From Pyrobaculum calidifontis JCM 11548 (lineage in GTDB: Archaea; Thermoproteota; Thermoprotei; Thermoproteales; Thermoproteaceae), in contig NC_009073.1 of assembly GCF_000015805.1 (NCBI RefSeq), positions 1,200,001 to 1,232,000 of the forward strand: DNA of 32,000 nt, given 5' to 3'. Shown in pieces: positions 10,912 to 12,473 of this stretch (position 1 is its first letter; every line of letters begins with the position of its first letter). Under the pieces are notes generated by a model that was not told the DNA's origin, did no database searches, and saw nothing but the letters and a program-made list of their open reading frames with translations. A program made the translations under genes and the position numbers.

Positions 10912-11910
10912 GTGGATGAGGTTTTTGAGTTGGTGGAGGTTTTGAGGTGGGCGGGGGAGGCGGCTGGTGAGGTTTCGCCGCCTGGGGGTGTGGGGGAGTG
11001 GGAGGGGGGTGAGTGGGGTGTGGTGGAGGAGTGTGGGTACTACGAGGTGGGGTTTGAGTGGGGGCCTCCTCCTGGGGATGTGCATGGGCTTGATAGCCAC
11101 ACTGTGGTGGTGGATTTTGGTGGGGTTTCTGTCATCGTGGCGACTGGGGCGCTGGTGGGGAGGGTTTCGGGGGTTGTGCCTGGCCTGCCGGCGAGGTGGC
11201 TTGGGGTTAGGTTTAACTTTTTGCTGGAGGGGGGCCTGCCTGTGGGTTCTCGGCTTTATTGGCGCTCCGCATTTTTGGACAGGGCTTTTGACGCGTCTTT
11301 TGACTTGGAGGCGGCGCGTGACGAGGTTAGGCTTCACGTGGAGGGGGTGCTGGCGGGGGCTTGGGATGGTGGTGGGACCCTCATTGTGGACGGCCCGGTG
11401 TTTAGGGCGGCGGCTGCGGCGGAGAGGGGTGGGGTCTATGGGGAGCTGTACCGGCGGTTTATTGAGGAGAGGGTGAGGGCTTTTGGGGGGAGGAGGGTTG
11501 TGGGGGTGGTGAAGAGGCTTGACCGCTCTTATTACCTGGCGAGGTGCGTGGGGGTGGGGGCTAACGACGAGGTGGCGGCTTTGAGGCTTTTGGAGGGGAG
11601 GGTGGGGTTTGTGGGGCCTGTCGTTGTTCGGGTTGGGGGGTTTGTGAAGTGGATGTACTACGTGGCTGTGCCTAGTGGGCGGGGGGTTAGGGTGGTGAGG
11701 GTGGAGGCGCTTGAGGAGGGGCTGGCGGCTGAGGCGGCTCGGTGGGTTGCGTCGCTGTGTGACCCGTTTGGGGTGCCGGTGCCCGTGGCGGTGGCGGACA
11801 AGATCGCTAGGCGCCTGAACGCGTCTATTGTCAAAATGATCTACGCGGCGTCCCCCGTGGAGCCGACGTATAGGGGGCTTGAGGCTGTGCTTGAGGCGTT
11901 TAGGTCGTGA
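10912..11910 (+). CDS. NurA-like nuclease domain protein
   Basis: HTVVVDFGG (first acidic motif), TLIVDGPVF (DGS/DGP-type motif) and [14 protein letters not shown] (K-x-S motif) resemble NurA (PF09376). A HerA-like ATPase lies nearby. GTG start; the stop overlaps the next ORF (GTGA at 11907-11910). Confidence 0.6.
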
Positions 11911-12473
11911 CTTACCTCCTGGCGGCGGCTGGGGTCTCTATCTTGAGGTTTGTGAAGGTGACTGGGCCGGCGGGTAGGGTGGACGTCTCCTCCTGTCCCA
12001 GGCCGTGGGAGGTGCCGGAGCTCCACATGGCGGCGGCGCTTGGGGGAGTGGAGCTGGAGCTGGCGGCGTCGGACACGGCGGAGGGGGTCGCGGCGGCTAA
12101 GGCGGTGCTTCTCTGCGCTGAGCGGCTTGGGGTGGCTAGGCCGGTGGGCTTCTTCGTGGTGAAGAGGTTTAGGCCGGGGTCTCTGGAGGGGGCGGCGGAT
12201 CTCTTGGACAAGGCGGTGGTGCGTCTCCTGCGGAGGGGCGGCTACGTGGGGCTGACCTCTGGCGCCAAGCCGCAGGTCTTCTACCTGCTCCTCGCGGCGT
12301 GGATTGCCGGCGCCCAGCCCGTCTACGTGGACGTGGGGGGCGGAGTCCACCTCCTGCCTAGGGTTGAGGTGAGGGTGGATTCCCTCCCGAGGGAGCTCCT
12401 ATACGCTGGGGATAGGCCGAGGGGGTGGGTGTTGGAGCTTATCCGAAGTGGGCGGCTCTCTTCTTTACCTTGA
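11907..12473 (+). CDS. CARF/Csa3-N-terminal-like Rossmann-type domain protein with no obvious HTH
   Basis: 188 aa, translationally coupled to the NurA-like [37 protein letters not shown] matches the CARF motif-II pattern x-x-[ST]-x3-[RK] followed by a helix and a beta-strand. Alternating beta/alpha propensity is seen upstream ([22 protein letters not shown]). Confidence 0.45.

Follow-up and report, generated by a model that had tools for sequence, protein, structure and literature searches.

What does a CARF domain that carries no effector of its own do when its gene is lodged between those of a NurA nuclease and a HerA helicase? The question is raised by a 32,000-nucleotide stretch of the Pyrobaculum calidifontis JCM 11548 genome (NC_009073.1, positions 1,200,001 to 1,232,000), hereafter referred to as the window and numbered from its first letter, in which a preliminary description had pointed out a 188-residue, stand-alone CARF-like protein encoded at positions 11907 to 12473. 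This protein is a CARF domain of the Crn1/APE2256 (CARF7) lineage, a shortened offshoot that is best read as a sister family of CARF7 and not as a member of it. With a probability of roughly 0.45, we propose that it would work as a homodimer binding and slowly cleaving cyclic tetra-adenylate (cA4), and that it would in this way gate or time the CRISPR-associated NurA-HerA machinery encoded on either side of it. The three genes concerned are:

11907 to 12473, plus strand: CARF-only gene, an open reading frame (ORF) with a GTG start, 188 amino acids, family CARF_m4.
10912 to 11910, plus strand: CRISPR-associated NurA paralogue, 332 amino acids (PF09376, E-value 6e-22; PADLOC NurA "Type III coevolved", E-value 1.4e-104).
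12439 to 14040, minus strand: CRISPR-associated HerA paralogue, 533 amino acids from the GTG at 14040 (Pfam HerA_C and DUF87; PADLOC HerA "Type III coevolved", E-value 9.5e-171).

That the plus-strand frame at 11907-12473 is real, despite the GC-rich antisense ORFs that overlap it, follows from its confident family and fold matches and from a ratio of nonsynonymous to synonymous substitution rates (dN/dS) of 0.15-0.24 against three orthologues of 72-76% identity, as expected under purifying selection. The PADLOC model CARF_m4--CARF (PDLC01985) matched the protein with an E-value of 3.8e-84 (278.8 bits), residues 1-172 covering all of the model (positions 1-158 of 158), whereas the PADLOC hidden Markov model (HMM) for CARF7 gave 2e-11 over a partial region only, far weaker than CARF_m4 at 4e-84. 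The "Csm6" CARF models of PADLOC were weaker as well and aligned with the CARF part alone (residues 46-156). CARF_m4, which is represented in PADLOC-DB by models PDLC01985 and PDLC01986, is said to be classed as a minor CARF family in the 2020 scheme of Makarova et al. At the level of profiles the assignment to this family is decisive, taking the name that PADLOC gives the model at face value, and the 188-residue protein is a full member showing no differences from it. E-values of 6e-82 and 2e-117 were obtained when the orthologues from P. neutrophilum and from a second clade (clade B) were compared with these two models. We considered whether the label "CARF_m4--CARF_TM" of one model denoted a membrane effector and rejected this reading, the 179-position model spanning the whole of a 179-residue clade-B orthologue. 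In Pfam, the sole match was PF09651 (Cas_APE2256), whose gathering score of 24.8 was narrowly passed with 25.4 bits, and all eight sequences of the orthologue alignment matched this same family. NCBIfam TIGR02619 scored 22.7 on the 188-residue protein, under its cut-off of 37.45, which is consistent with two of the orthologues carrying the public label "hypothetical protein".

The predicted fold leads to the same family. An AlphaFold2 model built from five sequences (predicted local distance difference score 89.5, predicted template-modelling score 0.86) displayed the alternating beta/alpha order of a Rossmann-like domain, with strands at residues 2-7, 48-55, 78-85, 113-116, 137-141 and 147-149 forming a six-stranded core and helices in between. 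All of the matches returned by Foldseek from the PDB at E-values of 0.001 or less (38 of 38) were CARF proteins. Sis0811 and Sso1393 came first (1e-8 to 2e-7), followed by Cami1, Csm6, Csa3, Sso2081, Cam1 and Cad1. The same two Crn1 ring nucleases, Sis0811 (7PQ2) and Sso1393 (3QYF), were also the closest PDB sequences found by phmmer and hmmsearch. Thus, the profile and structure searches that had been suggested as a check placed their top matches within the CARF families and not outside them, and the claim of a CARF domain holds. While a T-x3-K motif is trivial by itself, the evidence gathered over the whole protein is well beyond chance.

The original assignment to a Csa3-type domain, in contrast, did not survive comparison. 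Csa3 shares the CARF fold and is a cA4-binding dimer, but no Csa3 model matched the 188-residue protein, and Csa3 structures ranked 17th or lower in Foldseek, with an E-value of 9e-5 and a template-modelling (TM) score of 0.47, against 1e-8 and a TM score of ~0.66 on the query for Sis0811 (7PQ2/7PQ3) and Sso1393 (3QYF). Csa3 moreover bears a functional C-terminal winged helix-turn-helix (wHTH) that is missing here. Likewise, the name "Csm6", which stands for a CARF domain followed by a C-terminal HEPN RNase and under which the gene was first published, does not describe a protein that stops at residue 188 and has no HEPN match; the absence of this domain makes the name merely historical. As had been stated earlier, no nuclease or complete wHTH follows the CARF domain, family matches all ending by residue 172. 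The 39-residue peptide on which the preliminary description was based corresponds to residues 113-151, leaving 37 residues before the end of the protein.

Resemblance to characterised ring nucleases is strong on the side of the long forms and weaker on that of the short ones. With Crn1 the 188-residue protein has in common a GxS after the first beta-strand (beta1), an [ST]-D/N-T motif, and a T-x-G-x-K motif ending in the catalytic Lys. Compared to long Crn1 proteins, it is ~85 residues shorter, having neither the helical insert after beta1 nor the 65-residue wHTH. Sso2081/Sis0455 (7YGH, 7Z55/7Z56) are alike in build, being ~180-residue proteins made up of a CARF domain and a ~40-residue tail, with no effector and with Lys in the same motif. 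Their fold match is, however, much weaker (E-values of 1e-4 to 3e-4, TM scores of ~0.41-0.45). In addition, the Arg-Lys pair that is essential in Sis0455 (R105-K106) and Sso2081 reads Ala120-Lys121 in the 188-residue protein, and Sis0455 has a pocket-closing insertion where ours has a C-terminal tail. The structural extras of the Crn1/CARF7 group, namely the wHTH of the long form and the C-terminal insertion and Arg-Lys pair of the short form, are thus absent from this protein.

We then mapped the residues that bind and cleave cA4 in Crn1 onto the 188-residue protein, taking residue roles from PMC8643638 and PMC9638899:

11937 to 11939, plus strand: codon of Ser11, in G9-V-S11 directly after beta1, equivalent to Sis0811 Ser12 and Sso1393 Ser11.
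12069 to 12077, plus strand: S55-D56-T57, at the end of beta2, corresponding to Sis0811 T98-N99-T100.
12255 to 12269, plus strand: T117-S-G-A-K121, CARF motif II, from phmmer and hmmsearch alignments to 7pq2, 7pqa and 3qyf.
12360 to 12470, plus strand: C-terminal tail, residues 152-188, with two short AlphaFold2 helices at 162-165 and 173-180.

The equivalence of Ser11 to the catalytic Ser is one of alignment and position, as opposed to superposition: MAFFT sets GVS under the GTS, GLS or GVS of long Crn1-like homologues, and in the AlphaFold2 model residues 2-7 form beta1 and residue 11 begins a helix. G9-V-S11 thereby supplies CARF motif I, a small or polar residue following beta1. The mapping of S55-D56-T57 was made in two steps, from the short to the long family by hhalign and from a long paralogue to Sis0811, in which T98 and T100 touch adenines (PMC8643638). 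D56, G119 and Y140 are invariant in the short family; T57 (kept in seven of eight members) and T117 are mostly conserved. After beta4, G115-L-T117-S-G-A-K121 runs in register with N163-A-T165-A-G-L-K169 of Sis0811, and the structure of the K169G mutant (7pqa) has its Gly exactly in the column aligned to K121. The motif II layout put forward in the preliminary description, [DN]-x-[ST]-x3-[RK], is therefore borne out at T117 and K121, which pair with T165 and K169, but not at its first position, where a Gly in place of Asp or Asn is the sole deviation. K169 of Sis0811 acts by stabilising the transition state, S12 by stabilising the cyclic-phosphate product, and cA4 cleavage is crippled when either is mutated (PMC8643638). 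Ligand-binding and catalytic residues retained in this copy are thus S11, S55/T57 and K121, of which S11 and K121 stand for the catalytic Ser (S11/S12) and Lys (K168/K169) of Crn1. The tail, finally, may tentatively be read from its alignment as a leftover of the wHTH of the long paralogues. MAFFT places a 10-residue segment of it under DLVRSGFLVRR of the long forms, which speaks for such an origin, while hhalign, which aligned the protein with the long paralogues, did not extend beyond residue 160, which weighs against it. At 28-37 residues, the tail is in any event too short for a wHTH.

The retention of the Ser/Lys pair brings in a first competing explanation, in which the protein is an autonomous minimal ring nuclease that degrades cA4 to end type III signalling and whose placement in the NurA operon reflects mere clustering or co-regulation of type III accessory genes, the protein being linked to NurA-HerA neither physically nor allosterically. 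Its closest relatives in sequence and fold are Crn1 ring nucleases, Ser11 and Lys121 are both present, and the small CARF-only proteins characterised biochemically (Sso2081/Sis0455, Csx16 and Csx20) are all ring nucleases that degrade cA4 autonomously. The earlier contention that a protein made up of CARF alone depends on a partner is thus no necessary conclusion, since such relatives act alone. NurA-HerA pairs of the same family also occur without any CARF gene. We nevertheless consider this explanation rather unlikely. The family is found solely downstream of this NurA, with its start overlapping the stop codon of nurA, while Crn1 is known from a range of type III contexts; the short CARF gene stayed with nurA when the herA half of the operon was inverted, as described below, and the long CARF gene with herA; and not all members of the family have the catalytic Lys. 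The last of these points is tempered by TonCsm6, which cleaves cA4 with Asn135 in the role of K169 (PMC8643638). Reading the replacement of K121 by Asn in clade B as proof that these proteins are no ring nucleases is weakened accordingly, Asn at this position being no proof of inactivity.

The start of the window holds the edge of a Cmr module, a putative source of a cyclic oligoadenylate (cOA) ligand, and a CRISPR array:

348 to 1070, plus strand: Cmr6, a type III-B RAMP protein (Pfam RAMPs, E-value 5.8e-10; PADLOC Cmr6, E-value 1.8e-33), matching Pcal_1287.
3351 to 5855, plus strand: CRISPR array, in which GAATCTCAAGAAGAGGATTGAAAG is repeated 38 times (38 matches in a pattern search, with 0 expected).

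The array repeat is 24 nucleotides long, with a single mismatch in one copy (5761-5784), and matches a variant of direct-repeat family I tabulated for Pyrobaculum. The CARF gene lies ~6 kb from the array and ~11 kb from cmr6, which marks the edge of a Cmr interference module that would be expected to supply cOA. Csx1, a CARF-HEPN protein, is encoded near related loci and is listed beside cmr3/cas10 in P. calidifontis (PMC3396285), making it plausible that cOA signalling is in use.

The locus itself has been described before. Bernick et al. published the nurA-csm6-herA cluster of Pyrobaculum and the Thermoproteales in 2012, with csm6 being APE2256 (PMC3396285). They list "P. calidifontis Crispr6 + 1203351-1205855", preceded by Pcal_1287 (cmr6; their Table A1) and followed by Pcal_1294 (nurA, plus), Pcal_1295 (csm6, plus) and Pcal_1296 (herA, minus) (PMC3396285). 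The array in the window is offset from the Crispr6 coordinates by exactly 1,200,000, and the order cmr6, array, NurA(+), ORF(+), HerA(-) is the same. The CARF ORF is thus most likely Pcal_1295. Gene order and strands are also those of Pcal_1294-1296 and Tneu_1143-1145, and the trio lies beside a CRISPR array and type III (cmr) genes, as does the published cluster. Co-transcription of nurA and csm6 is reported from RNA-seq (PMC3396285), and later surveys counted HerA and NurA among the accessory genes of type III systems, with which the pair co-evolves, whence the "Type III coevolved" models (Shah 2018). The link to NurA and HerA that the preliminary description had suggested is well founded, CARF and NurA genes overlapping start to stop and HerA being adjacent in all related loci with gene calls, but it is not new. 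Family CARF_m4, the "Type III coevolved" NurA and HerA, the three-gene cluster and this exact locus are all already known, so that the identification as such adds nothing; its value lies in pointing to a possible control of NurA-HerA by cOA. What the present comparison contributes in detail is a likely ancestral four-gene operon, the retention of each CARF gene with one enzyme after an inversion, and a Lys that is invariant in the long and variable in the short proteins.

The distribution of the short family bears directly on this control. A word-indexed search of 5.8 billion proteins retrieved four relatives of the short CARF protein, and 1.84 billion cluster representatives, searched exhaustively by HMM, yielded only four short-form clusters, all Thermoproteaceae-like, along with longer CARF7-like proteins and two low-complexity matches. 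No short-form member is thus known outside the NurA context, nor did a scan of viral contigs yield a virus-borne (anti-CRISPR) copy. We examined 13 related loci, representing eight independent lineages besides the window; a locus search based on the close alignment added three loci only. In each of the eight other lineages nurA is followed immediately by the short CARF gene, which also neighbours herA and whose start overlaps the nurA stop by 4 nucleotides wherever gene calls are available. In three lineages, the genes for NurA, short CARF_m4, a long CARF7 (251-256 amino acids) and HerA are all co-directional, the short gene overlapping nurA and the long one overlapping or directly abutting herA. 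In the others, the half made up of the long CARF gene and herA is inverted, so that herA converges on the short CARF gene with a 35-nucleotide overlap, conserved among the loci that have gene calls. P. neutrophilum and the P. calidifontis window lack the long paralogue in their clusters, and tblastn did not find it anywhere in the window. From the comparison of loci L010-L013 with L001, L004, L005/L008 and the window, the ancestral operon likely consisted of nurA, short CARF, long CARF and herA. An inversion in one clade then likely broke it exactly between both CARF genes, leaving each CARF with one enzyme partner. From P. calidifontis and P. neutrophilum the long CARF gene has been lost from the cluster, making them natural three-gene minimal systems.

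The long paralogue aligns over its full length with Sis0811 (E-value 1.8e-16), matches PADLOC CARF7 at 7e-78 and has a wHTH; as far as such matches tell, it is a bona fide Crn1 homologue. Short and long families were aligned by hhalign over residues 27-160 with a probability of 99.3% and an E-value of 4e-20. On the strength of this alignment, the short family clearly derives from the long CARF7 form, having lost almost the entire wHTH as well as the helical insert that follows beta1. Ser and Lys are invariant in the long CARF7 paralogues. A second alternative is that of a pure trans-acting sensor or split CARF-effector, in which the short dimer would bind but not cleave cOA and, by allostery, would license NurA-HerA to degrade DNA. 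NurA-HerA would then be a type III effector activated by cOA. The strict coupling of the gene to nurA fits such a role, as does the persistence of the invariant D56, G119 and Y140 and of the mostly conserved T57 and T117 while the catalytic Lys is relaxed; the long paralogue, usually present in the same operon, could then provide the ring-nuclease function. We hold this to be unlikely: no CARF-only protein is known to work in trans on an effector separate from itself, the copy in the window retains the Ser/Lys pair, the clusters here and in P. neutrophilum both lack the long paralogue, and NurA-HerA pairs exist without CARF. An improbable but more elaborate version would have the CARF_m4 dimer dock as a detachable cOA sensor on a NurA dimer, and the long CARF7, where present, on HerA, with cA4 licensing processive DNA degradation by HerA-NurA. 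A split effector of this kind, if real, would provide the first example of a helicase-nuclease machine controlled by cyclic oligoadenylate, and the first of a CARF-only protein with a demonstrated action in trans.

Our preferred explanation is that of a cA4-cleaving regulator of NurA-HerA. The CARF protein would form a homodimer and bind cA4 made by the neighbouring Cmr complex. The dimer would probably cleave the bound cA4 slowly, given that this copy has kept Ser11 and Lys121, its counterparts to the catalytic pair of Crn1, and binding and cleavage together would probably time or limit the CRISPR-associated NurA-HerA nuclease-helicase, given that no member of the family is known from any place but the one behind this NurA paralogue. 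The protein would accordingly be a self-resetting regulatory subunit and not a generic off-switch. Several observations weigh against this proposal, which we place slightly below even odds. To our knowledge, characterised CARF sensors are nearly always fused to their own effector. Some of the residues with which Sis0811 contacts its ligand are not kept in the 188-residue protein: N16 has no equivalent, D75 corresponds to His40, Y189 to Val141, and Y191 is likewise not conserved. Position 121 is occupied by Lys in the clade of the window, by Asn in clade B and by Arg in P. neutrophilum; jointly, the Ser11 and Lys121 positions read Thr and Asn in clade-B locus L012, Ser and Asn in L010 and L013, and Arg and Arg in P. 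neutrophilum. With Lys121 variable and Ser11 lost in P. neutrophilum, cleavage is not a trait that the whole short family shares. Furthermore, no CARF gene stands between the nurA and herA genes of more distant "Type III coevolved" pairs, so that NurA-HerA does not depend on a CARF subunit, and the literature searched contained no experimental test of the nurA-csm6-herA cluster in the form of ligand binding, cleavage or protein contacts.

These non-conserved contacts also bear on the oldest proposal for the cluster, according to which the trio serves spacer acquisition or CRISPR-array repair, and the CARF protein is structural or regulatory, unrelated to cOA and possibly degenerate, with no ligand. 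A role in adaptation was put forward for nurA-csm6-herA by Bernick et al. in 2012 (PMC3396285), and it would agree with the missing ligand contacts and with the P. neutrophilum orthologue, which lacks both Ser11 and Lys121 and has a dN/dS of 0.50, pointing to relaxed constraint. The proposal nevertheless predates the discovery of cOA signalling. Every CARF domain of this lineage that has been solved binds cA4, the co-evolution of the cluster is with type III interference modules and not with adaptation modules, and most orthologues are under clear purifying selection. We consequently judge it highly improbable.

The NurA stop codon and the CARF start codon share a GTGA junction, a 4-nucleotide overlap in coordinates. 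Catalytic residues of NurA were mapped from invariant acidic positions (D61, D160 and D296) and from the Pfam and PADLOC matches alone, a sequence search with the NurA-family profile having found no solved NurA structure. The herA gene converges on the CARF gene and covers 35 nucleotides of its 3' end. HerA has intact Walker A (GTTGSGKT) and Walker B (LVDEAH) motifs and scores ~36 bits against the NCBIfam equivalogues for HerA of repair, whose cut-offs are 800-970. The herA ORF as called mechanically (12439-14217, minus strand, 592 amino acids, TTG start) would make the protein ~59 residues longer than all of its orthologues, and the start was placed at GTG 14040 by alignment to five of these. 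A TATA-like TTTTAAAT lies at 14059-14066, ~22 nucleotides upstream of this GTG, and a similar box, TTTTATATTT, at 10886-10895, ~22 nucleotides ahead of the nurA GTG. As sequence features, these boxes are consistent with two leaderless transcripts. Upstream of herA, a 223-residue coiled-coil-like ORF (14234-14905, minus strand) containing two 21-nucleotide tandem repeats (14574-14644) and matching no family significantly occupies the site that the long CARF7 holds in related genomes, but is unrelated to CARF7.

Other genes in the window were annotated for context. Directly after cmr6, an AAA_21/ABC-type ATPase (1095-1919, plus strand) matched PADLOC AriA, GajA and AbiLi-like models and is followed by two overlapping small ORFs, at 1916-2359 and 2353-2898, with no family match; the pairing of a RAMP gene with an AAA_21 gene recurs in related loci L007 and L008. 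The ATPase and its small companions may be the "Cas_RecF" ATPase and associated genes listed by Shah et al. 2018. Between the array and nurA, a 959-residue protein (7967-10846, minus strand) showed a P-loop only, with weak AAA_22/STAND-like matches at residues 383-433 and no PADLOC match, and its 313-residue neighbour (6792-7733, minus strand) matched no family. GC content drops to 0.33 across 7001-8000, compared to ~0.55-0.65 in the flanks, which suggests that this region is acquired DNA. Adjoining the cluster on its other side is a 364-residue archaeal ATPase (15083-16177, minus strand; PF01637 ATPase_2, E-value 1.8e-30) with a weak match to PADLOC mad8. Further along are a PaREP1 gene (17856-18443) and a gene for a DUF3782 protein with a PD-(D/E)XK nuclease domain (PDDEXK_10; 20445-21482, plus strand), the N-terminal half of which arises from 96-nucleotide tandem repeats (20780-21100); a similar DUF3782/PDDEXK_10 gene is found near the cluster in locus L008. 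Genes of fatty-acid beta-oxidation at 23052-27346 and 30311-31951, encoding enoyl-CoA hydratase, esterase/lipase, acyl-CoA dehydrogenases and thiolase, are ordinary housekeeping context and mark the end of the defence island.

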